A DNA stretch of 64,000 bases from an uncultured Bacteroides sp. (GTDB taxonomy: Bacteria > Bacteroidota > Bacteroidia > Bacteroidales > JACABE01): the NCBI GenBank assembly GCA_964634005.1, contig CAZWKQ010000012.1, positions 13,306 to 77,305 on the forward strand, written 5' to 3'. The position numbers and the translations under genes are program-made. The notes beneath the pieces were generated by a model. That model was not told where the DNA came from. It made no database searches and saw only the letters and a program-made list of their open reading frames with translations. Below are positions 4,311 to 60,943 of the stretch, one piece after another (the first letter of the stretch is position 1; each line of letters begins with the position of its first letter).

Positions 4311-5441
4311 TCAACTTTTTCTTAGTTTAATCCAAAAAGTGGTACCATCGATTTCAGAAGTATTAAAACCAACGCTTCCTTTGAGATATCTTTCGGTAAG
4401 CAGTTTAATTGAATATGTTCCTAAACCTCTGTTGCTCCCCTTAGTAGAAAAAGATCTTTGAAATACTTGCAACTGAACATCACGAGGCATAAAAGATTGG
4501 TTATGAACACTGAAAACAACATCATTATATTCAAGTCTGCAATTTAAAGTAACAATATTATTAATACTTGAAGCCTCTAAGGCATTTTTTAATAAGTTTA
4601 TCAATACTCGTTTCAATAAAAGTTCATCAGTAGTAAATTCAACATCAATAGCCTGATTTGAAATTGTAATCTTTTTATTTCTCGAAACGCTATGATTACT
4701 AAGATATTTAGAAACATCAAAAAGAATTTTTAAAGATGATATTTTCGCCATTTCGGGTTCAAGTTCGCCTTTTTCGGCAGCAGTTAATGCCCGTTGCGAC
4801 TGTATTTCCTCTAACAATTCACCGCTCAATTGGTCTAAAACAGGTATATTTTCTTTAATTTCTTTAACATCGTGAGTTTCTGCAAGCATTTCAGTAAGAC
4901 CTTTTAAACCGCCGGCAACATTTATAATATCATGAAAAAATATTTTCTCGAGCATCTGCTTTCTCTTAAAATCGCTGATATCATCAACAGTGAGGATGGT
5001 ATAAACATTTCCTTTGAAATTGAACGGAGTGCATGTTACTTGTAAATCTAAATATTCATGTTTATCATCAACAAGTGTAATTATACGACATTCTCTTGTA
5101 ACTTTTGAATTAGTTTTCTGACTTTCAATAATAGCATTAACAGCACCACAATACTTGCAATTTTCGGAAGTACCGCAACCGGCTTCCATCAAACTTGAAT
5201 GCACGCATTTTATTGCTTCTCCGGGTCGAAAACCAAGTATGCCGTCTTTATCGATTATGCTCAGGAAATTAAGCAATGTATCATTTGCAAATACTATTTG
5301 CCTTTGAGGATTGAGAATGGCAGCAATATCGGGCAGTGCATTCATAATCATTTTAACATAATCGTCCTGTTGAATTATATTATTATCATTTAATATTTGT
5401 TCTTTTGGGGCTCTTTCGGCAGGTGCATGATATGTTTCCAT
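4311..5441 (-). CDS. Cytoplasmic sensor histidine kinase with Cys-rich PAS-like input domain
   Basis: H-box FFHDIIN; N-box NLLKNALEA; G-box FSTKGSNRGLG; N-terminal PAS-like region with C79, C89, C95, C98. Confidence 0.88.
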   Translation of the reverse strand: METYHAPAERAPKEQILNDNNIIQQDDYVKMIMNALPDIAAILNPQRQIVFANDTLLNFLSIIDKDGILGFRPGEAIKCVHSSLMEAGCGTSENCKYCGAVNAIIESQKTNSKVTRECRIITLVDDKHEYLDLQVTCTPFNFKGNVYTILTVDDISDFKRKQMLEKIFFHDIINVAGGLKGLTEMLAETHDVKEIKENIPVLDQLSGELLEEIQSQRALTAAEKGELEPEMAKISSLKILFDVSKYLSNHSVSRNKKITISNQAIDVEFTTDELLLKRVLINLLKNALEASSINNIVTLNCRLEYNDVVFSVHNQSFMPRDVQLQVFQRSFSTKGSNRGLGTYSIKLLTERYLKGSVGFNTSEIDGTTFWIKLRKS

Positions 5442-7256: not shown

Positions 7257-7910
7257 CTATGCGGTTAATTCATTTTTTTTGACAAAGTAGGCAACTTTTT
7301 CTAAAGAAGTAATCATATCGTATTCTTCGAGAAAAATATGAGAAGAAACGTTAACAGGAGATGGAGTGAAATTTAAAATCCCTTTAATTCCTGAAATAAC
7401 AAGGTTTTCGGCAACTTTAGCAGCTTCGGATGCGGGAACAGTAATAATACCTATTGTTATATTTTCTTTTTTAATTATTTCCTGAAGTTTATCGTAAGAA
7501 TAACAATGTACGCCGGCATAAACTCTGTCGACCTTTTCGGGATTTGTATCGAAAGCTGCAACAATTGACAATTTTGTTCTTTTACCTTTAAAATAACTGA
7601 TTATTGCTCTACCCAAATTACCAACACCCACAACGGCAACCTTTTGCCCGTCTTCGCTATCAATAATATCACCAATTAAATCAATTAATGCTTGAACATC
7701 ATACCCTTTTCGCAAGGTTCCCGAATATCCTATAAGCATAATATCCCTACGTACCTGAACAGGGGTTATATGAAGCAAATTGGCTATTTCGTGCGAATAA
7801 ATATGAGTCTTACCATTTGCTGCACATACCAACAAATTTCTGCGGTACTGACTAAGTCTTTCAACTGTTTTATCGGGTAATTTTTTTATTTCTTTCACTT
7901 TTGTTATCAT
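7257..7910 (-). CDS. rex: Redox-sensing transcriptional repressor Rex
   Basis: TVERLSQY, QVRRDI...GY winged helix, Rossmann VGVGNLG, GILNFTP. Confidence 0.95.
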   Translation of the reverse strand: MITKVKEIKKLPDKTVERLSQYRRNLLVCAANGKTHIYSHEIANLLHITPVQVRRDIMLIGYSGTLRKGYDVQALIDLIGDIIDSEDGQKVAVVGVGNLGRAIISYFKGKRTKLSIVAAFDTNPEKVDRVYAGVHCYSYDKLQEIIKKENITIGIITVPASEAAKVAENLVISGIKGILNFTPSPVNVSSHIFLEEYDMITSLEKVAYFVKKNELTA

Positions 7911-7923
7911 TATTTTAAAATAA

Positions 7924-9048
7924 TTAGATATTCTTTGGTAATGTAATTGTAAATACCGACCCTTTTTCAGGTGAACTCGAAACTGTTATATTTCCTTCAT
8001 AAGAATCGATAATTTTCTTAACTATAGATAATCCTAAACCACTTCCTGAAATATTTTTAGTTTTTTGATTTTTAATTCTAACAAACTCATTAAAAAGTTT
8101 CGACATATCGTCTTCAGTCATTCCAATTCCATTATCACTTACCGTAATAGTAATATTTTCTTCTTTTTCTTTGATAAAGCAATCTACTCTGCCACCTTTT
8201 TTGTTATATTTTATAGCATTAGAAATCAAATTATTAAATACAATTTCCATTTCTCTTTCATCAGCATTATAATAAATACAGTCCTTACAATTTAAATAAA
8301 CTTCAACATCATTTTGTATTGCAAAAGGATTCATGGCATCTTTCGATATTTTAGCAATTTCGCATAAATTTATCTGTTTTATCTCTCTGTTTGATACTCC
8401 TGATTCGATTTTTGTAAGGTCGAGCAAATCCATTATTAAAGAACGCATACCGTTAATTCTCTCAATAGAACGTTCGATATTATTTTTATAATCGTCAATA
8501 TTATCGCCGAGTTGTTTTTCCAACATCATTTGTAAATAGCCTTCAATAGCATTCAGCGGAGCTTTCAATTCGTGAGAAAGTACCGAAAGGAATTGAAAAC
8601 GAACTTGTTTGCCGACAGTATTCAATCTTTTGGTCATTCGGCGGAAATAAACCTGTTTGGTTATAGTTTCGATTGATGAACGAAGTTCCTGAGGTGTGAA
8701 TGGTTTGGGAATAAAGTCAAAAGCTCCGTTTTTGGTTGCTTTTACTGCAACGTCTAATGATGCATAAGAAGTAATCATTACAACAAGTATGTCGAGATGA
8801 TTTTTGCTGACATACTCCAAAACCTCCAACCCTTGTATTCCGGGCAGCTTATTATCGAGCAGCATAATATCGGGTAGACCGGTTTTGAGGTATTCTATGG
8901 CATCTTCACCGGTAGGAGCCTCAATTATTTCAAATTTACAGGCCTCATCCATAAAAGGATATGAAACAGAAAAATCACGTAATACGCGCGACACACCCGA
9001 ACGGATTCCGGGTTCGTCGTCTACAACCATTAATTTGATTATTTCCAT
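7924..9048 (-). CDS. Hybrid REC-HisKA-HATPase signalling protein
   Basis: N-terminal receiver (VVDD, LLDNKLP, KPF), then H-box SHELKAPL, NLISNAIKY and GSGLGL. Confidence 0.92.
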   Translation of the reverse strand: MEIIKLMVVDDEPGIRSGVSRVLRDFSVSYPFMDEACKFEIIEAPTGEDAIEYLKTGLPDIMLLDNKLPGIQGLEVLEYVSKNHLDILVVMITSYASLDVAVKATKNGAFDFIPKPFTPQELRSSIETITKQVYFRRMTKRLNTVGKQVRFQFLSVLSHELKAPLNAIEGYLQMMLEKQLGDNIDDYKNNIERSIERINGMRSLIMDLLDLTKIESGVSNREIKQINLCEIAKISKDAMNPFAIQNDVEVYLNCKDCIYYNADEREMEIVFNNLISNAIKYNKKGGRVDCFIKEKEENITITVSDNGIGMTEDDMSKLFNEFVRIKNQKTKNISGSGLGLSIVKKIIDSYEGNITVSSSPEKGSVFTITLPKNI

Positions 9049-9051
9049 TAC

Positions 9052-9435
9052 TTAAATCTTTAACAACTTATTTATTTCTCTTTGTAACTGATCAGAACGT
9101 ATGCCTTTATCCATGTATAAATCAGCCTTTATCCATTTACGTTCTTCTTCCGAATGAACGTCGAAACTCATGCCGGTTTCGGCTGTTACGGCTGTTGCAA
9201 TTATTATGGGTACATCAGGATACTTCCTCTTCATTTTATAACTTAAAACGAAGCCGCTATCTTCATTCTCCATCATCAAATCGAAAATTGCCAAATCGGG
9301 TTTAAACGACTCCAAAAGTTGTTCAGCTTCATATTGACCATCTGCTGTTATTACTTCGAAACCTAATTTTTCTACTTTAAGTTTCATTTGATACAAGTAA
9401 TCCATGTCATCGTCAACAATTAAAACCTTTTTCAT
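9052..9435 (-). CDS. Single-domain response regulator
   Basis: VDDD, FDLMM, TAV, DKG; no output domain. Confidence 0.9.
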   Translation of the reverse strand: MKKVLIVDDDMDYLYQMKLKVEKLGFEVITADGQYEAEQLLESFKPDLAIFDLMMENEDSGFVLSYKMKRKYPDVPIIIATAVTAETGMSFDVHSEEERKWIKADLYMDKGIRSDQLQREINKLLKI

Positions 9436-9472
9436 ATTTTTATTTTATTAAAATTTATTTTCATTCATTTTA

Positions 9473-9480
9473 CAAAGTTA
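9473..9480 (-). promoter_or_regulatory. Internal -7 promoter element (TAACTTTG) upstream of the receiver gene
   Basis: TAnnTTTG match overlapping the hydrogenase-kinase stop codon, about 37 nt upstream of the ATG at 9435. Confidence 0.45.
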
Positions 9481-11466
9481 TTCCGACTTATACCTTGGTA
9501 AAGTAATAGTAAATGTGGTTCCAGTCGGGCCTTTTTCTATATCTGTGTTAGATTTAATGTCAACTTTACCTTTATGCATTTTAATGATACCGTAAATTAT
9601 AGGTAATCCTAAGCCTGTGCCTTTTCCAATACCTTTAGTTGTGAAAAAAGGAGTAAAAATTTTCTCCATATTTTCGGGAGCAATACCTGTACCGGTATCG
9701 GAAATTGAAAATATAATATCATCATTTTTCTCGGCAATATTAATATTAATTTCTCCACCATTTTCGGGCATTGCTTCTATTGAGTTTTTAATCAGATTAG
9801 TAATTACTTGTACCATTTGGTCGTAGTCTATCATAGCCATTTTATTCTTAAGTTCCGAATTAAGATTTATGGTAACGTTTTCAGGACATACTACCGATTG
9901 AATGCTACGTTCAAACATATTTTCAATATTAATCTCAGAGTAATTAAGTTGATTTTTCCTTGCAAAATTCAAAAGGCCGGACACTATTTTTTTACATCTG
10001 TCAGTTTGTTCTACAATCAGCTCAAGGTCTTTTCTTATAGGATCATCTGGATTACATTCGTCTTTCAGAATATTGCTGTACATAGTAATAACTCCAAGAG
10101 GATTATTTAGTTCGTGAGCAATTCCGGCAGAAAGCTGTCCCATATGTGCTAATTTTTCCGATTGTTTTAAGGCTAACTGTGCAGAAGCAAGTTTTTCGTT
10201 CGATACAGCCAAATCTTTTATGTATTTATGCAATTTCTCAATTGCATAAGGGAGGCACATTTCTTCTTCGGCAAGTCCTTTTATAATGGCTATAGCATGC
10301 TCATTGCATGAATCATAACCGCAAGCACCACAGTTTAGATGATCTTTTTCACTAAATTTACCCAACGATTTCAAAACTTCTTTTACTTCTTCCCAACTTG
10401 GGTCAGGAATTCTCCTGTCGTTGGCTACAAATGTTTGTGTTAAATCTATATCGCTATATTTTTCTATTTCTTTGAGCCATTCATCATTATCAATATTTTT
10501 GAGTTTTTGCTTAACATAACTACTTACCATAGTACGTCGGGCAAATCTTTTACCATTGGGCGAAGTACCCGGCCCCATAATACATCCTTCGCAACATAAT
10601 AACTCGAGATTATTATAACGTATCAACCCATTTTCAAACTCTTTAATGGCTTCACGAAAATCGACCCTTCCATCGGCAACAATAACATTGCCCTCGTATA
10701 TGTTTTCAGTAACATCAGTAGTTTGCAATAATCCTCTAGAAATCGGGAATATTGCTCCTTTTCCGGCATGAGGCGGATCAAACTCTGACGGAGTTACGTT
10801 TTCGCGTTTTATTCCAGAAATTTTAAACATTTCTCTGAGTTCTCTGAAAGTAAGTACTTCATCTAATTCGTCCGATTCTGCCTTTTTTGCAATACAAGGA
10901 CCAATAAAAACGACTTTTATGTCATTACCATACTTTTTCTTAACAACCCTTGTCATAGCAACCATTGGAGATGCAATAGGAGCAAGATATGGAACAAGAT
11001 CGGGGCTATAATGCTCAACATAAAAAGTAATTGCAGGACAATCGGATGATATTATTCCTTCACTGCCTTTTCTTTTAAATAAATTTGAATATTTTCTTGC
11101 AACCAAATCAGCTCCGAATGAAACCTCTGACACATAATCGAAGCCTAATGCTTTAATCATTCCTACAAGCAGCTTATAATCTTTTATTTCCTCAAATTCG
11201 GCAGGAAAACTTGGAGCCAGTAAAGCTATTTTTTTTGAATCAGATTTTAAAATAGAATAAACTTCGTCAGTTGCTTTCAAAAATGTTTTAGCTTCCTGTA
11301 CACAAACCTTAACGCAATTTCCGCAACCAATACATCTTTTATCGATAACTTCGGCCTGACCATTAACAATTTTAATGGCTTTGACGGGACATTCTCTGAC
11401 ACAAGTATAACAAACCCGACATTTATCGACTATTGTAAAAACCAATTGGTGTTTATGAGCCGGCAT
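9478..11466 (-). CDS. Sensory [FeFe]-hydrogenase fused to histidine kinase (group C, kinase-linked)
   Basis: Two [4Fe-4S] ferredoxin motifs; H-cluster motifs SSDCPA, GPCIAKKAE and ELLCCEGCIMGP; extra FeS domain NCGACGYDSC...MC; HisKA AHELNNPL; HATPase FFTTKGIGKGTGLGL. Confidence 0.9.
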   Translation of the reverse strand: MPAHKHQLVFTIVDKCRVCYTCVRECPVKAIKIVNGQAEVIDKRCIGCGNCVKVCVQEAKTFLKATDEVYSILKSDSKKIALLAPSFPAEFEEIKDYKLLVGMIKALGFDYVSEVSFGADLVARKYSNLFKRKGSEGIISSDCPAITFYVEHYSPDLVPYLAPIASPMVAMTRVVKKKYGNDIKVVFIGPCIAKKAESDELDEVLTFRELREMFKISGIKRENVTPSEFDPPHAGKGAIFPISRGLLQTTDVTENIYEGNVIVADGRVDFREAIKEFENGLIRYNNLELLCCEGCIMGPGTSPNGKRFARRTMVSSYVKQKLKNIDNDEWLKEIEKYSDIDLTQTFVANDRRIPDPSWEEVKEVLKSLGKFSEKDHLNCGACGYDSCNEHAIAIIKGLAEEEMCLPYAIEKLHKYIKDLAVSNEKLASAQLALKQSEKLAHMGQLSAGIAHELNNPLGVITMYSNILKDECNPDDPIRKDLELIVEQTDRCKKIVSGLLNFARKNQLNYSEINIENMFERSIQSVVCPENVTINLNSELKNKMAMIDYDQMVQVITNLIKNSIEAMPENGGEININIAEKNDDIIFSISDTGTGIAPENMEKIFTPFFTTKGIGKGTGLGLPIIYGIIKMHKGKVDIKSNTDIEKGPTGTTFTITLPRYKSE

Positions 11467-11487
11467 ATTTATTTTCTTTTTTTGATA

Positions 11488-12249
11488 TTAATTAAAAGCT
11501 CCCTGCAGATAACTTTTTGTTTTTTCCATTTTCGGATTTTCAAAAATCTCATCGGCAGGTCCTTGTTCTACAACTTCACCCATATACATAAAAACAACAT
11601 GATCGGCAATCCTTCTTGCCTGACGGAGAATATGAGTAACTAAAACAATAGTATATTGCTGTTTCAATTCAACAAATTTCTTTTCAATAACTTCGCTCGA
11701 AATAGGATCTAAAGCTGAAGTCGGTTCGTCGGCAAGGATAATCTCGGGATCGACAGCCAAACCACGTGCAAGGCACAAACGCTGCTGCTGTCCTATTGAC
11801 AGTTTGGAAGCAGGTTCGTGAAGTCTGTCATGAACTTCATCCCAAAGACTTACAATTTTCAAATAGTTTTCAACTCTTGCACTTAAAGCTTTTTTGTTTC
11901 TTCTTCCGCTAATTTTCAATCCGTAAGCAACATTATTAAAAATATTCATCGGCAAGGGATATGGTCTTTGCGAAAGCAATCCCATCTTCTTTCTTATCTC
12001 AGTTACATCGGTTTTTGTATTTAAAATATCTTCATTGTCAATCAAAATATTTCCGCTTATTTTAGCATCGTGATACAAATCGGTCAATCGGTTAAGACAT
12101 TTTAAAAGCGTAGTTTTTCCGCAACCTGATGGACCTAATATAACTGTAAGCTTATTCTCAGGAATTTCTATATTAATATTTTTCAGAATATGTTGTTTCC
12201 CTATGAAAAAATTTAGGTTATCGATTTTTATTTTAGCGTTGCTTGTCAT
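11488..12249 (-). CDS. pstB: Phosphate ABC transporter ATP-binding protein
   Basis: Walker A GPSGCGKT, LSIGQQQRLC, ADEPTSALDP. Start reassigned to the ATG at 12249, just after the pstA stop. Confidence 0.93.
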   Translation of the reverse strand: MTSNAKIKIDNLNFFIGKQHILKNINIEIPENKLTVILGPSGCGKTTLLKCLNRLTDLYHDAKISGNILIDNEDILNTKTDVTEIRKKMGLLSQRPYPLPMNIFNNVAYGLKISGRRNKKALSARVENYLKIVSLWDEVHDRLHEPASKLSIGQQQRLCLARGLAVDPEIILADEPTSALDPISSEVIEKKFVELKQQYTIVLVTHILRQARRIADHVVFMYMGEVVEQGPADEIFENPKMEKTKSYLQGAFN

Positions 12250-12250
12250 G

Positions 12251-13099
12251 TTATTGTATTCTGTTTTTATAATATTTTTTTGATAATGCTCTTGAAAATA
12301 CACTAATAATCAGTATTATAATAGTTAAAATAGCTGCACTGGCATAAGCACGGTTTTGAACTTCAGGTACAGGCGAACTGAGTTGGAAAAAGATAGATAA
12401 AGGCAGAGTAGCAGCAGGTTCGAGCAAAGAAGTCGGAATATTATCGGTATATCCTGCAGTAAACAGCACTGATGCTGCATCTCCAATCGCACGTCCGAAT
12501 GAAAGTAATATTGCAGTTACTATTCCCGAAAACGACTGAATAAGAACTACTCTGAACGAAGTTTCTGTTTTTGTTGAACCTAACGAAAAAGCTGCTTCGA
12601 GTAAGCCAACAGGAGTTGTTTTCAGAACTTCGTCACAAGCCCTTATCATTATTGGTAAAACAAACAAAGTAACAGTGATAATACCAGCCAATAACGAAGT
12701 TTTTATTCCCAGAAAAACCATTAATCCAAAACCAAAAGCTCCATAAACTATTGAAGGAACACCCCATATTAAATCGAGTAAAAACCTGAAAAAGTTTAAA
12801 AAGCGTTTGTATTTTATTAGATAAACATTCATAAATAAGGCTACAGGAACGCCTATAACAGTAGCAAGAAAAGTCGCTCCGACTGAAAGATATAATGAAC
12901 CTATTATTGCATTGAGTACACCGCCTTGTTTACCGTAATAATAGCCACCTTGAGGCTTCTGAGTAAGCATTTCCCATGAAAGCGAACTTAATCCCTTTTT
13001 GAAAATACTATAAATGATTAAAAGCAATACAAATAGTATAATCAAATTGCTAAACAACATTAAACCCCTGAAAAAATACTCTTCAATCTTTTTTAACAT
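12251..13099 (-). CDS. pstA: Phosphate ABC transporter permease
   Basis: GVPSIVYG, EAAFSLGST, SFGRAIGD, ATLP. Confidence 0.92.
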   Translation of the reverse strand: MLKKIEEYFFRGLMLFSNLIILFVLLLIIYSIFKKGLSSLSWEMLTQKPQGGYYYGKQGGVLNAIIGSLYLSVGATFLATVIGVPVALFMNVYLIKYKRFLNFFRFLLDLIWGVPSIVYGAFGFGLMVFLGIKTSLLAGIITVTLFVLPIMIRACDEVLKTTPVGLLEAAFSLGSTKTETSFRVVLIQSFSGIVTAILLSFGRAIGDAASVLFTAGYTDNIPTSLLEPAATLPLSIFFQLSSPVPEVQNRAYASAAILTIIILIISVFSRALSKKYYKNRIQ

Positions 13100-13107
13100 C
13101 TCTAAAA

Positions 13108-14004
13108 TCAGTATTTATCGTATCTAATTATAATCATTCTCATTATAGCATTAAAAAACATAACAACTACAAACAAAATTAAAGCAGCAAACATAAGAGC
13201 AGCATCATAATGTGGAATAGATAACATTTCCCCATAGTTATTGGCAATCAAAGCAGGTAATGGATAACCACCGTCAAAAACATTTTTCGGAATTTGGACA
13301 ATATTTCCAACTACCATAAGTACTGCTATTGTCTCTCCAAATGCACGCGCGAAGCCGAAACCAATAGCAGCCATAATTCCGGGCAATGCCTTTTTAACGA
13401 GAACAAACTTAATCGTTTGCCATTTAGTTGCACCCAATGATAATGAAGCTTCTGTCAACTCTATCGGTATTGCTCTGAAAATTTCAATGAGAATATTCAG
13501 AATAAACGGTATAATCATTACCGCTAAAACCAAACCCCCTGCTAATATACTGTACCCCATGGTATTTGCTCCAAAAACAGGTGCTATAACGTTCGAGATA
13601 AATGGGACTATTACTATTACACCCCATACACCATAAACAACCGATGGAATACCGGCCAATATATCTATTACGGGATGAATTATCTTTAAATAAAACTTTT
13701 TTGAATACTGTGTTATTGAAAGAGCAGCGAAAATGCATATAGGAGCCGAAATTACCATTGCCAAAGCAGTAACCCATACCGAACCCATAATAAACGGGAA
13801 AAAGCCAAACTCTTGACTGCTCGGACGCCATACTTTTGAAAACAATAATTTCCCTAACGAATTATCTCTAAATAACATATCAGATTTATAATACAATCCG
13901 GCTCCAAGAATAAATGGCATCAACAACACCACTAATGATGCTATAACCATCCATGCAGTACTTATTCTGTTTTTAGTTTTTCTGTTATAAAATAATACTA
14001 TCAT
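13108..14004 (-). CDS. pstC: Phosphate ABC transporter permease
   Basis: LAGIPSVVYG, EASLSLGATKWQT, RAFGETIAV. Confidence 0.93.
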   Translation of the reverse strand: MIVLFYNRKTKNRISTAWMVIASLVVLLMPFILGAGLYYKSDMLFRDNSLGKLLFSKVWRPSSQEFGFFPFIMGSVWVTALAMVISAPICIFAALSITQYSKKFYLKIIHPVIDILAGIPSVVYGVWGVIVIVPFISNVIAPVFGANTMGYSILAGGLVLAVMIIPFILNILIEIFRAIPIELTEASLSLGATKWQTIKFVLVKKALPGIMAAIGFGFARAFGETIAVLMVVGNIVQIPKNVFDGGYPLPALIANNYGEMLSIPHYDAALMFAALILFVVVMFFNAIMRMIIIRYDKY

Positions 14005-14044
14005 TAATACTTATTAGCTGATAATTAGTAATTTATGTTAACAT

Positions 14045-15034
14045 TTATTTTAATTTTTCAATTTCACTTTTCACTCTTTCATCAGAAAGTTTAACATAAC
14101 CTGCCTCATTAACATATTTTTGTCCGTCAGTCAATACCCATAAAATAAAGTTTCTTACGAGCGATTTCTTTGGAGTTCCCTGAGAAACAAAATACAAAGC
14201 CCTTGAAGGCGGAGACGGATAAACTCCATCTCTGATGGCATTCATTATATCATCAAGAGTTTCATAAACCATTTCTTCTTTATCAATTTTGCCGTTTGAA
14301 TTTATATCAATCGGAACTACATCAATACCTTGATATTTCTTACGTGTATTAATGTCATAAACATAGGCAATATTGTTAAACCCTATACCATTTATATCTT
14401 TTCTTACAGCATCGGCTACACCCGGATCTCCATTTACTCCTATACCTTTAATATCTTCTTGTTTTTTATTTTTTAAAAACTTTGCCCACATTTCGGCAGC
14501 TCCGCAAGCATCAGATCTGGTATAAACATTTATTGGTGAGTTATTTGTAGTTTTATACAACCAACCCCATTTTCTGTAATTTCCTGTAATAAATATCTCA
14601 TAAAAATCATTTTGCTTTAATCCTTTTTCTTTCAAATCTTTCATTATTGGATTTTTTTCATTTACCGTAGCTAAAACAGCATCTTTTGCAACAGCAACAA
14701 ACCAAGCACCTTTTTGCTTTTCTTCATCGCTGATTTCTTTTGAAAACATCCCTAAATCGACCATTTCCGAAAGTGCATCTGTCATTCCTTTTCCGGCTCC
14801 ACCGGCAGATACATTGATTGTAACTTTAGGATGTAGTTTCTGATATTCCTCAGCCCACCTGACTGTCAATGGATAAAGAGCAAATGCTCCCGAAATACTT
14901 ATAGTACCCGATAAACTATCTTTGCCGTCAGTTGATTTATTTGAGCCATTATTGCACGAAAATAACGACATCGACAAAATCAATGTTACTAAAGTAAGCA
15001 CATTTAATGTTTGTTTGATACAATTGGTTTTCAT
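14045..15034 (-). CDS. pstS: Phosphate ABC transporter substrate-binding lipoprotein
   Basis: Lipobox LFSC; SGAFALYP, GGAGKG, YTRSDACG, YP...R.LY. Confidence 0.9.
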   Translation of the reverse strand: MKTNCIKQTLNVLTLVTLILSMSLFSCNNGSNKSTDGKDSLSGTISISGAFALYPLTVRWAEEYQKLHPKVTINVSAGGAGKGMTDALSEMVDLGMFSKEISDEEKQKGAWFVAVAKDAVLATVNEKNPIMKDLKEKGLKQNDFYEIFITGNYRKWGWLYKTTNNSPINVYTRSDACGAAEMWAKFLKNKKQEDIKGIGVNGDPGVADAVRKDINGIGFNNIAYVYDINTRKKYQGIDVVPIDINSNGKIDKEEMVYETLDDIMNAIRDGVYPSPPSRALYFVSQGTPKKSLVRNFILWVLTDGQKYVNEAGYVKLSDERVKSEIEKLK

Positions 15035-15085: not shown

Positions 15086-16804
15086 TTATAAAACCTCTCT
15101 TCTTCTAAAATCAGTATATAACATATTTTTGTTGTTTTCTGAAATGTTGAAAAAATTTTGATAAATTTCGTTTACCAAAGGATTTTTATGAGCAAACTTT
15201 ATCGATTCTTTATCATCAACATCATAAATAGCTTTGATTCGCGATTTTACAGCTTCTTTGTTTGAAGGAATAGGTTGTCCGCCACCATTAATGCAACCAT
15301 TTTGACATGACATTACTTCTACAAAATGTATATCATTCCTGCCATTTTTAATCTCATTTATAATTTTTTCGGCATTAATAATATCGCTGACAACAGCAAC
15401 ACCTATATTATAATTTTGAGTTTTAAGAACAAACTCTTTCCTGTTTTTATTTATGGTTCTTAATTCAGTAATTTTATAATTAACCATATCAGAATTATTG
15501 ATAATATAGTAGAGCGTTCGTAAAACAGCTTCGGTGACTCCACCCGATGCAGCGTACAATTTCCCCGAAGAGCTTCGTGTTCCTAAAGCAGCATCTGATA
15601 ATTCCGATTCGATATTCATTAAATCAATTCCGTAAAGCCTTATTAATCGTGCCAACTCTCTTGTAGTAAGGACTGCATCAACATCGGTTATACCTTTATG
15701 GGTCATTTCTTCACGCTGAGCTTCAAATTTTTTAGCAATGCAAGGCATAATGGAAACATTATATATATTTTCGGGCATAAATGATTTGCTTTCGGAATAA
15801 TAGTTTTTAACAAGCATACCCATTATTTGCTGCGGTGATTTTACTTTTGACAAATTTCCGATCATTTCAGGGTGAGTTTGCTCAACATATTTAACCCAAG
15901 CAGGACAGCAACTTGTGAATAAAGGTAAGTTTTCGCCCTTATTTATTCGGTTTAACAATTCATTTGCAACTTCAATTGCGTTAATATCGGCACCTAAGCT
16001 TGCATCGAATACTTTGTGAAATCCAATTTTTCGTAATGCAGCATTGAGCATTCCGTTTATATCTTTACCTGCTTTGATTCCGAATTCTTCGGCAAGTGAT
16101 ACTGTAATAGAGGGGGAATAACTTATTACAACATGTTTATTGGGATTATTTAATGAATCTATTGTTTCAGGTAAATGATCTCTTTCGTAAAGAGCACCAG
16201 TAGGGCAAACCATAATACACTGACCGCAATTTATGCAACTCGATAGATTGATTCCTTTTTCACAAGCAGTAGTAATTTCGCAATATTTGCCTTTCTTAAT
16301 GAAATCAATAGCAGTAACTCCGACAATTTCCTCACATACCCTGACACACCTTCCGCACAAAATGCACTTTTTGGGGTCACGTATCATGCATGAGCCTGAC
16401 CTGTCGGCTTTTTGATTACCTTTTCTTCCGCTTATTCTTCTTTCAAGAACATTTAATTCAATGGCTAACTTTTGTAATTCGCAATTGCCGTTACGTTCAC
16501 AATAAAGACAATCGTCAGGATGATTTGATAACAAAAGTTCAACAATAGTTTTTCGGGCTTTAATTACTTTGGGAGAATGTGTTTTTATCCTCATCCATTC
16601 TTCTACCTGTTGAGAACAACTTGGTACAAGATTCTCATATCCTTCAACTTCTACTGCACAAATTCTACAGGCACCGGATGGAGTAAGGTCTTCCATAAAA
16701 CATAGTGTAGGAACTTTTATTCCATTCCTGTTTAAAGCCATTAAAATAGTTTCACCTTTTTTGGCTTTAATTATTTTATTATTTACTTCTATATCAAATA
16801 CCAT
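15086..16804 (-). CDS. hydA: Group A [FeFe]-hydrogenase H-cluster subunit (HydA/HndD-like), divergent
   Basis: [2Fe-2S], His-ligated [4Fe-4S] (HPDDCLYC...C) and two [4Fe-4S] F-clusters; H-cluster motifs TSCCPAW, MPCIAKKFE and EVMSCQNGCINGGGQP. Confidence 0.92.
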   Translation of the reverse strand: MVFDIEVNNKIIKAKKGETILMALNRNGIKVPTLCFMEDLTPSGACRICAVEVEGYENLVPSCSQQVEEWMRIKTHSPKVIKARKTIVELLLSNHPDDCLYCERNGNCELQKLAIELNVLERRISGRKGNQKADRSGSCMIRDPKKCILCGRCVRVCEEIVGVTAIDFIKKGKYCEITTACEKGINLSSCINCGQCIMVCPTGALYERDHLPETIDSLNNPNKHVVISYSPSITVSLAEEFGIKAGKDINGMLNAALRKIGFHKVFDASLGADINAIEVANELLNRINKGENLPLFTSCCPAWVKYVEQTHPEMIGNLSKVKSPQQIMGMLVKNYYSESKSFMPENIYNVSIMPCIAKKFEAQREEMTHKGITDVDAVLTTRELARLIRLYGIDLMNIESELSDAALGTRSSSGKLYAASGGVTEAVLRTLYYIINNSDMVNYKITELRTINKNRKEFVLKTQNYNIGVAVVSDIINAEKIINEIKNGRNDIHFVEVMSCQNGCINGGGQPIPSNKEAVKSRIKAIYDVDDKESIKFAHKNPLVNEIYQNFFNISENNKNMLYTDFRRREVL

Positions 16805-16829
16805 TTCTTAAACTTTGAAAATATATTGA

Positions 16830-18773
16830 TTATTTAATATAAATTGCACTGAATTTACATGTTTCGAAACATATACCACAACCTATACATTTGCTTTCGA
16901 CAATAAAGTGAGGATATTTAACAGTTCCAATAATAGCATTAACCGGACATTTTCGCATACAAGCATTGCAGCCGGTACATTTTTCTACATCTATATAAAA
17001 AGTTCTTAATTCTTTACAAACACCTGCCCTGCATTTTCTATCGAAGATATGTTCTTCATATTCATCTCTAAACCACTTAAGTGAACTTAAAAAAGTATTA
17101 GCTGCATTTTTTCCTAAACCGCAAAGTGATGTATCTTTAATAACATCGGCAATATTTTCGAGTTGCATTACGCCTTTAAATCTGTCTAAGGTTTGATGTG
17201 AAGTTTCATCTTTAGGAATTTTAGTAATCTTTTCGATTATCTCATACATTCGTTGAGTTCCTTCACGACAGGGAATACACTTTCCACAACTTTCGTGTTG
17301 TATGAAATTTAAGTAAAACTTAGTCAAATCAACCATACAGGTATCTTCATCCAAAACAACAATACCTCCCGAACCCATGAAAGTTCCGGCATTCTTCAAT
17401 TCATCATAATCTATCGTTAAATTAAGATTTTGTTCAGTAATAAAACTACCTGCCGGACCTCCTAACTGTATTGCTTTAAATTTCTTATTATTTTTTAGTC
17501 CCCCTCCTATATTTTCAACAATTTCTGCCAATGTCTTACCCATTTCAACTTCTATCAATCCGTGATTTGCAATTTTTCCGGAAAGAGAAAGAATTTTGGT
17601 TCCTTTGCTGTTTTGTGTACCAATATTTGTAAACCATACAGGACCATTATTAATAATATTCGGAACATTTAGCAAAGTTTCCACATTATTTACAACTGTA
17701 GGCTTACCAAACAGTCCTTTTTCAGCGGGATATGGAGGCCTTGTTCTTGGCATTCCTCTTCTGCCTTCAATACTGCTCAACATAGCTGTTTCTTCCCCAC
17801 AAACAAATGCCCCCGGAGCTTTTTTTATAATTAAATCAAGATTAAATCCGCTATCGAGAATATTTTCACCTATTAATCCCAAATTTCTCGCTTGATTAAC
17901 AGCATTTTTAAGTCTTTCATAGGCTAAAATATTGTCGGAGCGAATATAAACATAAGCTTTGCTTGCACCAATTGCATAAGAGGCAATTGCTATACCCTCG
18001 ATTAATTTATGAGGATTACTTTCAATTAATATTTTCTCCATAAAAGAACCGGGGTCACTTTCATTCGAATTACATATCAAATATCTCTGGTCGGAAGCGG
18101 TTTCGTGTGCCAATTTCCATTTTTGACCCGTCGGGAAACCTGAACCTCCCCTACCCCTTAAGCCACTTTTACTTACAATACGACATACTTCATCAGATGT
18201 ATAATGATAAATCGATTTTACATAAGCTCTGTAACCGCCATTGGCTATAAATTCTTCTATTGATTCTGGATTAATAATACCGTTCAATTCAAGTAAAATT
18301 CTTTTTTGACCGGAGAAAAAAGGTAAATTTTCAATATTATTAATATTGTCCCACTTCTGAAGTTTTTTTTGATTATATTGTCCTATAACATTATCTGAAA
18401 CAATGTTGTTATTAAAAACACCGTCTAATATATTCGTAACCGATTCCGCATCGACATTTTTGAATGATATTCTGCATAATCCCGGCATCTGAACATCCAT
18501 AACAGGCTCTAAATGGCAAGCACCTATACACCCTACACTCACAACTTCGGCATCTATTTTCTTCTCTTTAAGATAAACATTTACGGCCTCTTTCGTTTTT
18601 AAAGCTCCGGCAGCTATACCGCAAGACGAGGTGCCTATATAAATTACAGGTTTTCTTACCGTTTCACGTTTAAGTTGTTTTATCATCTCATCCGCTTCTT
18701 TGCCGGCAGATGTTGTATCGTTTTGTAACACATTTTTAGTTAAAAACTTAATAATATTCTCCATAAAAATCAT
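16830..18773 (-). CDS. hydB: NuoF-like flavin/NADH subunit (HydB/HndC)
   Basis: Thioredoxin-like [2Fe-2S] N-terminus, GLRGRGGSGFPTG, GAFVCGEETA, CGKCIPCREG, LCGLG, two C-terminal [4Fe-4S] motifs. Confidence 0.92.
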   Translation of the reverse strand: MIFMENIIKFLTKNVLQNDTTSAGKEADEMIKQLKRETVRKPVIYIGTSSCGIAAGALKTKEAVNVYLKEKKIDAEVVSVGCIGACHLEPVMDVQMPGLCRISFKNVDAESVTNILDGVFNNNIVSDNVIGQYNQKKLQKWDNINNIENLPFFSGQKRILLELNGIINPESIEEFIANGGYRAYVKSIYHYTSDEVCRIVSKSGLRGRGGSGFPTGQKWKLAHETASDQRYLICNSNESDPGSFMEKILIESNPHKLIEGIAIASYAIGASKAYVYIRSDNILAYERLKNAVNQARNLGLIGENILDSGFNLDLIIKKAPGAFVCGEETAMLSSIEGRRGMPRTRPPYPAEKGLFGKPTVVNNVETLLNVPNIINNGPVWFTNIGTQNSKGTKILSLSGKIANHGLIEVEMGKTLAEIVENIGGGLKNNKKFKAIQLGGPAGSFITEQNLNLTIDYDELKNAGTFMGSGGIVVLDEDTCMVDLTKFYLNFIQHESCGKCIPCREGTQRMYEIIEKITKIPKDETSHQTLDRFKGVMQLENIADVIKDTSLCGLGKNAANTFLSSLKWFRDEYEEHIFDRKCRAGVCKELRTFYIDVEKCTGCNACMRKCPVNAIIGTVKYPHFIVESKCIGCGICFETCKFSAIYIK

Positions 18774-18779
18774 TATAGT

Positions 18780-19238
18780 TTATTGATTCTTTAAACTATC
18801 TATCAGCTCACGAATATCTCCAATTTTAACATTAGTATATGTATGGCCGTTTACTTCAATCACAGGCGATAAGCCACACGAACCCAAGCAACTGACCTGT
18901 TCGATACTAAACTGACCATCTCTGGTTGTTTGTCCGGCACTTATTTTTAGCTCCTTTTCCAACTCTTTTAAAATTACCGACGATTCGTTTAAATGACATA
19001 CCGTTCCATTACATATTTTAATGTGAAATTTACCGTTAGGTTTAAATTTTAAATTATTATAAAACGAAGCAATTCCATATACTTTCGATGATGCCAGATT
19101 AAAATACCTGCTGATTACCGAAATAGACTCTTCGGATAAATAACCCTCTTGCTCTTGAATTTCTGTCATTAAATCGATTAATCCACTTCTATCATCAGGT
19201 TTATACTTTCTTAATATCTCTTCAAAATTTATTCCCAT
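18780..19238 (-). CDS. hydC: NuoE-like [2Fe-2S] subunit (HydC/HndA)
   Basis: KVYGIASFY, ICNGTVCH, SCLGSCGLSP. Confidence 0.92.
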   Translation of the reverse strand: MGINFEEILRKYKPDDRSGLIDLMTEIQEQEGYLSEESISVISRYFNLASSKVYGIASFYNNLKFKPNGKFHIKICNGTVCHLNESSVILKELEKELKISAGQTTRDGQFSIEQVSCLGSCGLSPVIEVNGHTYTNVKIGDIRELIDSLKNQ

Positions 19239-19266: not shown

Positions 19267-19274
19267 CAAAAATA
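19267..19274 (-). promoter_or_regulatory. -7 promoter element (TATTTTTG) of the hydCBA operon
   Basis: TAnnTTTG match 28 nt upstream of the hydC ATG. Confidence 0.55.
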
Positions 19275-19288
19275 ACAGAACTTTTCGA

Positions 19289-19337
19289 TTTAACAATAAT
19301 TATTGTTAAAAAAATAACATTGTTATTTGCTTAACAA
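19289..19337. promoter_or_regulatory. Operator region: 22-bp perfect palindrome plus two tandem Rex-like boxes
   Basis: TTTAACAATAATTATTGTTAAA (19289-19310); TTGTTAA-AAAA-ATAACAT (19303-19320); TTGTTAT-TTGC-TTAACAA (19320-19337). Rex consensus is TTGTGAA-N4-TTCACAA. Confidence 0.65.
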
Positions 19338-37427: not shown

Positions 37428-40280
37428 ATGAAAAATAATTTATTTTTCGCAATAACTCTACTAACACTATTTTCATTTTCAAAACAACTATCTGCACAAT
37501 TCTACGAAGCAGGTCAAAACCCGCCGTCAGTTAAATGGAAAATAATTGATAATAAAAGGTTTTCAATTATTTTCCCTGATGAAATACAAGCTAATGCCAT
37601 TAAACTTGCAAACTACCTTTATAATAATATTCCTGATATTAATTCGGATTATTCAATAAATGCCAAAAAATTCCCAATAATACTTCACAATCGTACGGTT
37701 ACTGCAAATGGCTTTGTAACCTTGGCTCCCAAAAGAAGCGAGTGGTATGCTTTGCCGCCACAAGATATTTATTCGCAACCTTGGCTCGAACAAATGGCAC
37801 TTCACGAATACAGACATATTGTTCAAATAAGCCAATTTTACAGGGGATTTACAAAATATATGCAAATTCCGTTTGGTCAAATAGCTGTAGGTTCTGCTAT
37901 AGCTACATTTATTCCGAGTTGGGTAATAGAGGGCGATGCGGTAATATCAGAAACAATGTATTCAAACTCTGGCAGAGGAAGATTACCCGAATTTTCGGCT
38001 CCATTAAAAGCTCAACTTTTAGAAAAAAAAATATTCAGCTACAACAAGGCAATTTTTGGCTCCTACAAAGACTTTGTACCTGATATATACACTTTAGGTT
38101 ATTATCTAACCGGATATACCAAAATAAAATACGGAAACGAAATTTTCGATAAAGTTTTCAGCTATACAGCACGCTATCCTTATATTTTTATACCTTTTGC
38201 AACAAGTGTAAAAAAATACACGGGGAAAACCCCATTAAAACTTTATAAAGAAACTATTGGCGAAATTAACAATCAATTTTCAAAAGAAATTAATACTGAT
38301 ACTTCCGATTATAAATTATTAAATACTTCGCAATCTGTTGTTTATACTAATTATTACTCTCCAAAACCATTTAAAAATAAAACTATTGCCGTTAAATCCT
38401 CACTAAATGATATAACACGTATTGTAAGCATTGATAGTAACGGGTTTGAAAAAATTTTATTTACACCCGGTTATATGACAGATATGTCTATTTCAAATAC
38501 TAACGATAAAATATTATGGGCAGAGTATGAACCGGATATCAGATGGGGTTTACAATCTTATTCAGTTATTAAAGTTTACGATTTGAATAAAAAGAAAATT
38601 AAAAAACTAACAAATAAAACCCGTTATTTTTCTCCGGCTTATAATAAAACAGGTGATAAAATTGCTTGTATAGAGAATAATCTAAGCGGAAACACATCAC
38701 TAATTATTATTGATGCATTTACCGGCAATGCTATTAGAAAAATAAATTTCGAAAGTACTGATGTTATTGCATATCCTTCATGGAATAACGACGGAGATAA
38801 GATTATTGCCGTTATTACAACTAATTCAGGCAAATCGCTAATTGAATACAATCTGATAACAGATGAAACAAGAATATTAATTCCTTTCACTTTCAATGAT
38901 ATTAAGTATCCCAAATATTTCAAAAATTATATAATTTTTTCATCTTCCGAAAAAAACACAAACGAAATATTTGCTTTTGACACTGTAAATAATAAGTATT
39001 TTCTAATTACTTCTTCGGTATTTGGCTCATTTCAACCGCAAATTGATGACCATTCTTCGATTATGTATTATACAATATACACCTCAAATGGCTATAAAAT
39101 AGTCTATAACACTATTAAAGAAAGTGATTTTAAAGAGGTTAGCTTTCCCAAAATTATAAGCACATCAATTATTGACAGCATAGGAAAATTTAACAAGACA
39201 GATAAGGACACAGTAAAAAATGAAGTAATAGATTTTGAAGTTAAAAAATATAAGCCTATCAATCATTTGTTTAATTTTCACAGTTGGGCGCCTTTATCAA
39301 TTGATGCATATAATCAAACAATTACTTCCGGCGTTTCGGTTATGTCTCAGAATCTATTAAGTACTTTGTTTATTACTGCAGGCTATGAATATATAAGCCA
39401 AGAAAAAAAGGGGAAATATTATTTTGATTTGTCATATAAAGGCCTCTTCCCGATAATTGATATCAATGCGGAAACCAAGTCAAGAGAGGGAAATTTGTTT
39501 TCAAACGGATTATTTGTCAGAAAATTTACATATAGAGAAAATACATCAAAAATAGGTATCAGAGTTCCTTTAAGATTTGCTGCGGGAAAATACTATACAG
39601 GATTACAACCTTCATTAAAAACTCAATTAATTCAAATTGTTCACAACGAAACTACTCCCGAACAAATGACAAAAGGAATGATATCGAGTTTAGATTATAG
39701 ATTATATTTCTATCATTTATTAAGAACTTCGAAAAGAGACATTTATCCAAGATGGGGGCAAATTGTTGATATTAATTTCAGACATTCGCCCTTTGGAGAA
39801 ATCAATTTTGGCAATATCGGGTCTGTTGAAACATGGTTATATTTCCCTTCTTTTATTATAAACCACGGACTTATGCTATATGGCGGATATCAAAAAAAGA
39901 ATTACGGAGAAAACCTCTACAGATATTCTGATTTAATAAATTACCCGTTTGGAACAAGTATTGTTGAAAATGATAATTTAATCTCAATATCAGCTAATTA
40001 CACATTCCCCGTTTTATATCCCGATCTTAGTCTCGGTTCGCTTATTTATTTAAAACGAATACATTCTGTATTGTCATCATCATTATTAAAAGGTAATTAT
40101 AAAGGAAATAATATCAATTTAAGTTCTTACAGTGTTGAATTAAACACTGAATTTCATTTTTTAAGATTCTTGGCACCATTTCAGCTTGGCTACCGCTTTT
40201 CTTACATTCCTGATAAAAAAAGTTATTTCAATGAGATTCTATTTAATATAAATTTTTCGGGATTAGCTCCTAAAAATTAG
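37428..40280 (+). CDS. Outer-membrane protein: HExxH peptidase-like domain + TolB/PD40 propeller + C-terminal beta-barrel
   Basis: Signal peptide; HEYRH...EGDAV; repeats such as FSPAYN, AYPSWN, SFQPQID; amphipathic beta-strand-rich C-terminus. Confidence 0.7.
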   Translation: MKNNLFFAITLLTLFSFSKQLSAQFYEAGQNPPSVKWKIIDNKRFSIIFPDEIQANAIKLANYLYNNIPDINSDYSINAKKFPIILHNRTVTANGFVTLAPKRSEWYALPPQDIYSQPWLEQMALHEYRHIVQISQFYRGFTKYMQIPFGQIAVGSAIATFIPSWVIEGDAVISETMYSNSGRGRLPEFSAPLKAQLLEKKIFSYNKAIFGSYKDFVPDIYTLGYYLTGYTKIKYGNEIFDKVFSYTARYPYIFIPFATSVKKYTGKTPLKLYKETIGEINNQFSKEINTDTSDYKLLNTSQSVVYTNYYSPKPFKNKTIAVKSSLNDITRIVSIDSNGFEKILFTPGYMTDMSISNTNDKILWAEYEPDIRWGLQSYSVIKVYDLNKKKIKKLTNKTRYFSPAYNKTGDKIACIENNLSGNTSLIIIDAFTGNAIRKINFESTDVIAYPSWNNDGDKIIAVITTNSGKSLIEYNLITDETRILIPFTFNDIKYPKYFKNYIIFSSSEKNTNEIFAFDTVNNKYFLITSSVFGSFQPQIDDHSSIMYYTIYTSNGYKIVYNTIKESDFKEVSFPKIISTSIIDSIGKFNKTDKDTVKNEVIDFEVKKYKPINHLFNFHSWAPLSIDAYNQTITSGVSVMSQNLLSTLFITAGYEYISQEKKGKYYFDLSYKGLFPIIDINAETKSREGNLFSNGLFVRKFTYRENTSKIGIRVPLRFAAGKYYTGLQPSLKTQLIQIVHNETTPEQMTKGMISSLDYRLYFYHLLRTSKRDIYPRWGQIVDINFRHSPFGEINFGNIGSVETWLYFPSFIINHGLMLYGGYQKKNYGENLYRYSDLINYPFGTSIVENDNLISISANYTFPVLYPDLSLGSLIYLKRIHSVLSSSLLKGNYKGNNINLSSYSVELNTEFHFLRFLAPFQLGYRFSYIPDKKSYFNEILFNINFSGLAPKN

Positions 40281-60580: not shown

Positions 60581-60943
60581 ATGAAAACAATTTTATTTGT
60601 TGACGACCACGCAAGTATCAGAGAATTAGTCAAAGATGTACTAACGCAAAAAGGATTTGATGTTTTATTAAGTAATGACGGAGAAGACGCAATAAAACTT
60701 TTCGACGGACGCAATATCGATCTTTTAATCACCGACTTACATATGGAAAAAATGAATGGTATTGAACTTACAAAAGAAATCAGGAAAAATTCTGACTATA
60801 AACATATACCAATAGTAGTATTAACCACAGAATCTCAAGTTGAAAAGAAAATTGAGGCTAAGAATGCAGGTGCTACAGGCTGGATAGTAAAACCTTTTGA
60901 TGCCGAAAATTTATTGAAGGTTGTAAACAAATTAATTCGTTAG
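60581..60943 (+). CDS. cheY: Chemotaxis response regulator CheY
   Basis: VDD, ITDLHM, LTTES, GATGWIVKPF. Confidence 0.9.
   Translation: MKTILFVDDHASIRELVKDVLTQKGFDVLLSNDGEDAIKLFDGRNIDLLITDLHMEKMNGIELTKEIRKNSDYKHIPIVVLTTESQVEKKIEAKNAGATGWIVKPFDAENLLKVVNKLIR

Follow-up and report, generated by a model that had tools for sequence, protein, structure and literature searches.

The closest described relatives of hydS/HK, the gene considered here, are putative H2 sensors among the [FeFe]-hydrogenases. hydS/HK is a single open reading frame (ORF) of 662 aa with an ATG start (positions 9478-11466, minus strand) in a 64,000-nt stretch of contig CAZWKQ010000012.1 from an uncultured Bacteroides sp., a stretch that we call the window. 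The nearest described kind is HydDB Group C1, with ING2E5A_0849 of the Bacteroidales isolate Petrimonas mucosa, encoded beside hndABCD (PMC7768429), as an example; Group C1 is also known in Hydrogenedentota (PMC11406978). Like hydS/HK, ING2E5A_0849 joins an H-cluster domain to a histidine kinase, is predicted to sense H2 and lies beside a multimeric NADH-linked group A hydrogenase; we know of no difference in kind between the two, and from the published description they are probable orthologues. TmHydS of Thermotoga maritima (group C, M2f) shares with hydS/HK two N-terminal [4Fe-4S] clusters, Gly at the position of CpI Met353 and a Cx2Cx4Cx16C cluster motif (PMC10055695, PMC8163306), and is likewise encoded with a bifurcating HydABC. 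Unlike hydS/HK, it ends in a PAS domain, has no kinase and carries Ala131 and Ser267 instead of Asp142 and Leu290 (PMC10055695), so that the preliminary description of this DNA was right in giving Ala for the Cys299 position of the Thermotoga protein. TamHydS of Thermoanaerobacter mathranii (group D, M2e) resembles hydS/HK in lacking PAS, in its cluster core and in having Leu at Met497 (PMC8163306, PMC13104023), and the core numbering is nearly identical, the first Cys of the C-terminal cluster being Cys379 in both. In contrast to hydS/HK, it stops after the C-terminal cluster, a kinase-like ATPase being encoded by a separate gene (PMC8163306, PMC10407848, PMC11803613), and it has Ala137 and, as a group D hallmark, Ser at Met353 where hydS/HK has Gly189. 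A Glu252-Glu289(-Ser249-Asp265) proton route has been proposed for TamHydS (PMC8163306, PMC10407848, PMC11803613). Having Gly at Met353 and lacking Cys299 has been described as typical of TmHydS and TamHydS, putative sensors of low activity (PMC10055695, PMC8163306).

In the group A enzymes CaI, CpI and CrHydA1, Asp is the sole substitution of the Cys299 type that preserves activity, with the bias moved towards H2 evolution (PMC3485046, PMC6226526, PMC9563086). The engineered variants CpI C299D (6GLZ), CaI C298D and CrHydA1 C169D have, like hydS/HK, a carboxylate beside the bridgehead amine; unlike hydS/HK, they are catalysts that still have the Glu-Ser-Glu-Arg relay and both Met residues. H2-dependent control of a histidine kinase has been described for the [NiFe] regulatory hydrogenase HoxBC, with the kinase HoxJ and the regulator HoxA, in Cupriavidus necator, and for HupUV/HupT. 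There, as we propose for hydS/HK, hydrogenase genes are regulated by a histidine kinase that is itself under the control of a slow hydrogenase binding H2. HoxBC/HoxJ differs from hydS/HK in having an unrelated metal site and fold, in consisting of separate proteins that act via a PAS-like region, and in its aerobic H2-oxidising hosts. The earlier statement that H2-dependent kinase control had not been shown therefore holds for [FeFe] group C and does not extend to the [NiFe] HoxJ system.

We think it fairly likely, judging from the sequence data below, that hydS/HK is a soluble H2-responsive kinase that starts a three-protein phosphorelay tuning a HydABC hydrogenase. The gene itself is not unusual, and serves as an entry point into the open question of H2 sensing by [FeFe] proteins. 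What is new here is an Asp fixed at the proton-relay position in a Bacteroidota branch, together with two further relay proteins and, usually, Rex.

hydS/HK combines four metal-site motifs with a complete histidine kinase

The features of hydS/HK, all on the minus strand, are as follows.

9478-11466, minus strand: hydS/HK, sensory-type [FeFe]-hydrogenase core joined to a histidine kinase (ORF, Pfam, 120 full-length homologues)
11293-11430, minus strand: N-terminal ferredoxin-like domain with two [4Fe-4S] motifs (Pfam Fer4 families, motif positions)
10570-11232, minus strand: H-cluster domain, aa 79-299 (Fe_hyd_lg_C, E 2e-47; alignments; predicted local distance difference test (pLDDT) >90; Foldseek)
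11035-11049, minus strand: motif 1, SSDCP, aa 140-144 (motif position)
11041-11043, minus strand: codon GAT of Asp142, at the position of CpI Cys299 (alignments)
10882-10902, minus strand: motif 2, GPCIAKK, aa 189-195 (alignments)
10582-10605, minus strand: motif 3, ELLCCEGC, aa 288-295, with an extra Cys291 (alignments)
10249-10338, minus strand: C-terminal [4Fe-4S] motif Cx2Cx4Cx16C (PF04060, motif)
10144-10254, minus strand: linker helix, aa 405-441, with a Leu heptad, from Cys404 to the kinase dimerisation helix (heptad count, model)
9952-10143, minus strand: HisKA (DHp) domain, with His451 (nt 10114-10116) in AHELNNPL (Pfam)
9493-9828, minus strand: HATPase_c catalytic domain (Pfam, boxes; best PDB matches ZraS and KinB)

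Pfam placed a Fer4 dicluster at aa 13-58 and Fe_hyd_lg_C at 79-299, followed by PF04060 at 377-406 (E 5e-9), HisKA at 442-505 (E 8e-15) and HATPase_c at 547-658 (E 4e-25), the kinase thus occupying about 250 residues after the C-terminal cluster. The protein has 20 Cys in total, 16 of which were assigned to four cluster motifs: Cys16/19/22/26 and Cys45/48/51/55 to the N-terminal clusters, Cys143/191/292/295 to the H-cluster and Cys379/382/387/404 to the C-terminal cluster. By its sequence, hydS/HK retains all residues required to hold an H-cluster and three [4Fe-4S] clusters, two of them N-terminal and one C-terminal. The kinase has the H-box His, the N (NLIKNS), G1 (DTGTG), F (FTPFF) and G2 (GKGTGLGL) boxes and the dimerisation helix hairpin of the HisKA family. 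Its best matches were AtoS and ZraS (ZraS E 2e-31), and in this sense the term 'NtrB-type' used previously is appropriate. In a 61-sequence family alignment reaching down to 62% identity, all 16 cluster Cys, Lys194, Pro85/Ser86, Asp142, His451 and the kinase boxes were invariant, which indicates that both the hydrogenase and the kinase half are under purifying selection.

An AlphaFold2 model of the monomer, built on the same alignment, had a mean pLDDT of 79.8, with values above 90 in the H domain. A single helix (405-439) runs into the DHp helix that bears His451 (442-470), and a second DHp helix follows at 476-504. This continuity is explained by the Leu heptad, since Leu405, 412, 419, 426 and 433 are spaced exactly by seven, starting directly after Cys404. 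The low pLDDT of the linker helix is as expected, because a dimeric coiled coil was modelled as a monomer. No PAS family matched hydS/HK in Pfam at E <= 0.01, and a hidden PAS domain was ruled out by Pfam together with the all-helical model of residues 300-377 and 405-470, the former stretch being purely helical. The succession of FeS domain, coiled coil and kinase with no PAS domain, proposed from the letters alone, was therefore recovered by Pfam, the heptad and the model. Foldseek against the PDB matched the front half to CbA5H, DdH, CpI and the HydA subunits of HydABC, and the back half to ZraS; the library held no sensory [FeFe]-hydrogenase structure, the matches being catalytic enzymes and ZraS.

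Asp142 occupies the proton-relay position without the rest of the relay

Residue equivalences were taken from two independent alignments, one made with MAFFT against the HydA encoded in the window itself and one with HMMER against the CpI and TmHydA chains of the PDB. Both gave Asp142 = Cys299, Cys143 = Cys300, Gly189 = Met353, Cys191 = Cys355, Lys194 = Lys358, Leu290 = Met497, Cys292 = Cys499 and Cys295 = Cys503 (CpI numbering). The three motifs reported earlier (SSDCPA, GPCIAKK and ELLCCEGC) are thus where they had been placed, with Asp at Cys299 and Gly at Met353. The four H-cluster ligands are present and invariant in the motifs L1 (xxxCP), L2 (PCxxK) and L3 (ExxxCxxxC), L3 having one residue less between its last two Cys than in CpI. 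Ala84-Pro85-Ser86 corresponds to CpI Ala230-Pro231-Ser232 and Pro167 to CpI Pro324, so that Lys194, Pro85/Ser86 and Pro167, the residues that hold the cyanide ligands, all have their CpI counterparts and are invariant. The best-scoring CpI chain in the HMMER search was the engineered C299D variant 6GLZ.

The remainder of the pocket departs from group A. The window's own HydA has the canonical motifs TSCCP, MPCIAKK and EVMSCQNGC, whereas hydS/HK lacks Cys299, Met353, Met497 and the Glu279-Ser319-Glu282-Arg286 pathway of group A enzymes: Glu279 is aligned with Lys125 or, in the other alignment, Tyr126, Glu282 with Asn128 or Leu129 and Ser319 with Ala162, and at the Arg286 position there is merely a basic residue. 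Consistently, hydS/HK scored 109 bits against a cut-off of 406 bits with the NCBIfam group A model. Glu288 is probably the counterpart of TamHydS Glu289. Thus, the equivalence of Asp142 with the proton-transfer Cys stands, and as far as the alignments tell Asp142 stands alone, the group A proton relay not being restored around it.

We then looked at how widely this Asp is distributed. S-S/T-D-C-P was found in all 120 closest homologues listed, and Asp in 82 of the 86 loci compared, the exceptions being one Lentimicrobiaceae (Asn) and three Planctomycetota (Thr, Ser, Thr). A wider census covered the 144 representative clusters (50% identity) that retain the neighbouring Cys. The Cys299-position residue was Ala in 47, Pro in 24, Thr in 19, Ser in 18, Cys in 14, Asn in 6, His in 4 and Asp in 3, and the three Asp entries were fragments of the query's own family. 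Outside that family, none of the 43 kinase-fused representatives had Asp (Pro 15, Thr 9, Ala 8, Ser 4, others). This census fits a published survey of the HydDB sensory sequences (Cys 17%, Ala 43%, Pro 10%, Ser 10%, 'etc.'; PMC10055695). Since all close homologues have Asp and the other clusters have other residues, Asp142 is a derived, fixed character of the Bacteroidota branch, essentially confined to it. No paper mentioning Asp at this position in sensory hydrogenases was found in the searched literature. Residues co-varying with Asp142 were also sought: Met103, Arg244, Met297 and Lys321 were typical of the clade and also occurred in about 14% of non-Asp clusters, leaving no clear partner.

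The architecture of hydS/HK is that of Group C1

The architecture of hydS/HK is not new and matches HydDB [FeFe] Group C1, the histidine-kinase-linked class: an H-cluster domain and HisKA/HATPase_c lie in one polypeptide, and the sensory core has a non-canonical active-site pocket and a C-terminal Cx2Cx4Cx16C cluster. It has no PAS after that cluster, as a protein of TmHydS type (M2f) would, and it neither ends there nor has Ser/Thr at Met353, as in group D (M2e), but carries Gly189 and a kinase. A word-indexed search scored 8000 candidates; the 120 homologues listed were all 656-678 aa long, 63-91% identical and of the same domain make-up, and their named sources were Bacteroidota, Bacteroidales or Tenuifilaceae. 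In a scan with one genome per species, at least 587 genomes had a relative. The best 80 of these were nearly all Bacteroidota, including Lentimicrobiaceae, Rikenellaceae and Draconibacterium, with a few Planctomycetota at 51-53% identity. hydS/HK is therefore a typical member of a large, already named class.

An exhaustive search of 50%-identity representatives with residues 1-420 gave 987 clusters at E <= 1e-30, the best 150 of which were analysed. The Cx2Cx4Cx16C motif was present in 137 of these 150 and a kinase fusion in 43. Only about 6 of the 43 had a PAS match and about 37 had none; a PAS domain of the TmHydS type was found in about 29 of 75 scanned non-kinase clusters. Direct fusion to a kinase without PAS is thus, among these sequences, the commonest kinase form of the core, and the view of the PAS-less fusion as a rarity is to be given up. 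Because one core joins three outputs (kinase, PAS and sigma-54 activator), the unit of Fer4, H domain and FeS domain can be described from these comparisons as a portable input module.

The third output was seen in 15 of the best 150 clusters, in which the sensory core is fused to a sigma-54 AAA+ activator and HTH_8, a Fis-type helix-turn-helix (representatives P0143, P0156, P0167, P0176, P0177, P0182, P0187, P0196, P0208, P0211, P0214, P0215, P0226, P0227 and P0240). From its domains, such a protein looks like a one-component H2-dependent enhancer-binding protein, and no description of a sigma-54-fused sensory hydrogenase core was found in the searched literature.

Candidate relay partners and a group A hydrogenase are encoded beside hydS/HK

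In the window, the genes are arranged in the order hydC-hydB-hydA-pstSCAB-hydS/HK-REC-REC/HK-rex-ribF, all on the minus strand and separated by gaps of 3-61 nt.

18780-19238, minus strand: hydC, NuoE-type (Pfam, gene tables)
16830-18773, minus strand: hydB, NuoF-type (Pfam, gene tables)
15086-16804, minus strand: hydA, HydA-type with canonical TSCCP (Pfam, motifs; FeFe_hydrog_A6 687 bits against a cut-off of 765, NCBIfam)
11488-15034, minus strand: pstS-pstC-pstA-pstB-like ATP-binding cassette transporter (NCBIfam)
9052-9435, minus strand: single-domain receiver, 127 aa, with Asp8-10 and Asp52, candidate phosphoryl acceptor (Response_reg)
7924-9048, minus strand: receiver-kinase hybrid with REC Asp65, HisKA His159 and HATPase_c and no other input domain (Pfam)
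7257-7910, minus strand: rex, NADH/NAD+-sensing repressor (NCBIfam Rex models above cut-off)
19303-19320 and 19320-19337: two adjacent Rex-box-like palindromes, TTGTTAA-N4-TTAACAA, with 2 and 1 mismatches, upstream of hydC

hydCBA (15086-19238) encodes the subunits of a trimeric bifurcating-type group A hydrogenase, the likely target of the regulation. The order hydC-hydB-hydA-hydS/HK-REC-REC/HK was kept in essentially all loci, from about 80 species and including the Planctomycetota with 51-53% identity. The stop of hydA and the start of hydS overlap in L005. Wherever a locus extends far enough, REC and then REC/HK almost always follow hydS/HK (REC is absent in L076). Accordingly, what had been presented as a candidate one-protein transducer is better seen as the first step of a multi-protein relay. 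The pst genes stand between hydA and hydS/HK in only 5 of 86 loci (L001-L004 and L007), which are near relatives of the window; being confined to these, the cassette is probably a lineage-specific insertion and not part of the sensor system. Within it, PstC and PstA passed the NCBIfam cut-offs, PstB fell just below and PstS reached 129 against 207 bits.

rex-ribF lies downstream in most loci, rex being present in 44 of the 62 loci of sufficient length. The pair of Rex boxes stands just upstream of the hydC start and of a Bacteroidetes-type -7 element, TATTTTTG (19267-19274). Across 70 other loci, Clostridium-type Rex sites had a density of 2.8 per kb within 260 nt upstream of hydC and of 0.03 per kb elsewhere, an enrichment of about 90-fold. 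They were present in 35 of 44 loci encoding rex and in none of 18 without it (Fisher p = 2.5e-9). Because the boxes are enriched before hydC and co-occur with rex, the hyd cluster is very probably also under Rex control. The Firmicutes-type box TTGTGAA-N6-TTCACAA was not enriched (6 matches against 11 expected). Scans for internal promoters and terminators, with sigma-70 and terminator models ill-suited to Bacteroidota, stayed at background.

The exact hydS/HK gene was found in digester, sludge and biogas metagenomes. The complementary DNA (cDNA) library X13 covers the whole cluster, with coverage falling just upstream of hydC. Four metatranscriptomes (X26-X29) contain a related strain at 95-99% identity, as assembled contigs of low depth. 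Their contigs bridge REC/HK, REC and hydS (8472-9779) and also hydS and pstB (11002-12230). The sensor genes are therefore transcribed, and co-transcribed with their neighbours; the RNA data show presence only. Between 2000 and 19600 in the window, these contigs cover the pst genes, hydS, REC, REC-HK, rex and peptidase genes, hydCBA being almost absent, which gives only a hint of separate expression of hydCBA and the sensor genes.

Proposed mechanism and alternative explanations

In the mechanism that we propose, H2 would bind at the diiron site and be split, Asp142, beside the bridgehead amine, taking or holding the proton while the electrons reduce the H-cluster and the N-terminal clusters. 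A redox- or protonation-linked change in the H domain and the C-terminal cluster domain would pass along the coiled coil, and the dimeric kinase would toggle between autophosphorylation and phosphatase modes. The phosphoryl group would then go to the single receiver (Asp52), to the receiver-kinase hybrid (Asp65, then His159), or to both. Together with Rex at the hydC boxes, the relay would match HydABC expression or activity to H2 pressure and the NADH/NAD+ ratio. Given that the other residues of the group A proton pathway are missing and that the Gly189/Leu290 pocket is that of slow enzymes, it is more plausible that Asp142, by holding a proton, adjusts the affinity for H2 or how long the reduced state lasts than that it supports fast turnover. 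Such a system would matter in several respects. The two proteins studied so far, TmHydS and TamHydS, have no measurable output, whereas in a kinase-fused member the autophosphorylation of His451 could be read directly, and the partner proteins are encoded alongside. The Bacteroidota branch occurs commonly in anaerobic digesters and in sludge, where H2 partial pressure decides whether fermentation and syntrophy can proceed. Asp142 may also bear on how the pocket sets H2 affinity, Asp being the only known functional replacement of the proton-relay Cys.

Several points weigh against the H2-responsive kinase. A literature search combining H-cluster, autophosphorylation and hydrogenase found no paper, and H2 sensing by groups C and D is predicted only; the preliminary description had called the kinase-linked group C proteins predicted sensors, which remains accurate. 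The coupling step is the weak point: the C-terminal cluster of TamHydS was not reduced under 1 atm H2 (PMC13104023), which makes a simple redox relay through this cluster doubtful, and in our analysis a conformational route would be at least as likely as a redox route. The role of Asp142 is one that we only infer. No HydG-like ORF or other maturase gene was found in the 64-kb window, and no DNA-binding response regulator is encoded at the hydS/HK locus. Finally, the coverage of the sensor genes with near-absence of hydCBA in X26-X29 is compatible with regulation and does not show it. Overall, what was first seen in this gene is confirmed, and what was made of it is partly supported.

A bolder version of this proposal is that the Bacteroidota branch evolved a distinct way of sensing, with Asp142 as the sole protonatable group at the diiron site, no solvent relay and a proton latch: once H2 is split, Asp142 or the amine would keep the proton, and the clusters would keep the electrons. 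We regard this as unlikely. If true, it would be the first natural [FeFe] enzyme using a carboxylate at the Cys299 site, and the cleanest system for measuring the coupling of H2 to phosphorylation in one polypeptide.

Three other explanations are each less likely than an H2-responsive kinase. In the first, hydS/HK would sense the redox pool, its FeS clusters reporting the state of ferredoxin or NAD(P)H, and the H domain would be a scaffold or its H2 chemistry irrelevant. The protein does have three accessory [4Fe-4S] clusters, the N-terminal pair being the usual docking and electron-transfer module, the locus already handles redox signals via Rex, and the failure of H2 to reduce the TamHydS C-terminal cluster (PMC13104023) would fit. 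However, the H-cluster Cys, Lys194, Pro85/Ser86 and Pro167 are invariant, which a mere scaffold would not need, and TmHydS and TamHydS, built on the same core, take up the diiron cofactor and show a reaction with H2 (PMC10055695, PMC8163306). Moreover, such a sensor would be redundant where Rex already provides the NADH input. We consider this explanation rather improbable.

It is still less probable that hydS/HK is a working hydrogenase with a kinase attached, in which Asp142 would restore proton delivery as in C299D and the kinase would report flux and not H2 concentration. The activity of the engineered Asp variants (PMC3485046, PMC6226526, PMC9563086) speaks for it, and the N-terminal clusters could exchange electrons with ferredoxin. 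Yet the other pathway residues are replaced (E279 by K125/Y126, S319 by A162, E282 by N128/L129), Met353 and Met497 have become Gly and Leu as in the slow TmHydS and TamHydS (PMC8163306), and the gene cluster itself includes hydA for a canonical catalytic enzyme.

A phosphate-related, PhoR-like kinase, suggested by the position directly downstream of pstSCAB (the ORF starts 21 nt after the end of pstB, a junction spanned by cDNA contigs) and by PhoR being among the weaker kinase-domain matches, is highly improbable, because the pst cassette occurs in so few loci and hydS/HK elsewhere directly follows hydA, the PhoR match is limited to the generic kinase core (103 against a cut-off of 334 bits), and no PhoB-type regulator is adjacent.

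Variants and other genes of the loci

The H2-responsive kinase that we favour has further company in some relatives of the window. In about 40 loci, a second, divergent HydS-like gene lies upstream of hydC, seen as minus-strand 'HydS_HK' matches; the window is without it. L006 (2157-5244) has, together with this second gene, one for a SpoIIE/PP2C phosphatase and a small one for a 2Fe-2S thioredoxin-like protein. In such relatives, one hydrogenase operon would thus lie between two different putative H2 sensors. Speaking for the H2-responsive kinase, L005 and L006 have a HydG-type radical-SAM gene (Radical_SAM and BATS, 475 aa) next to the cluster. In loci lacking rex, genes for a response regulator of the LuxR/NarL type and for a receiver-like protein of 172 aa were found just upstream of hydC (L025, 3312-3956 and 4142-4660). 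The former is a candidate for the DNA-binding output through which the relay would act in the genomes without rex.

Elsewhere in the window, receivers are found in a LytTR/BtsR-type response regulator (40270-41040) and in two tandem single-domain receivers (60581-60943 and 60951-61313), which have no positional link to the hyd cluster. The gene string of hydS/HK itself ends with a PAS-type histidine kinase (4311-5441) that has a Cys-rich stretch, CVHSSLMEAGCGTSENCKYCG, in its PAS region and, from this stretch, may be another metal- or redox-sensing input. Lastly, the first motif of the catalytic-type HydA had variants that one would not expect in group A: TSSCP, in which Ser stands in for Cys299, in L076 (about 1204-1593) and L082 (about 2101-2490), and TSCSP in the hydA of two Planctomycetota (L084 and L085).

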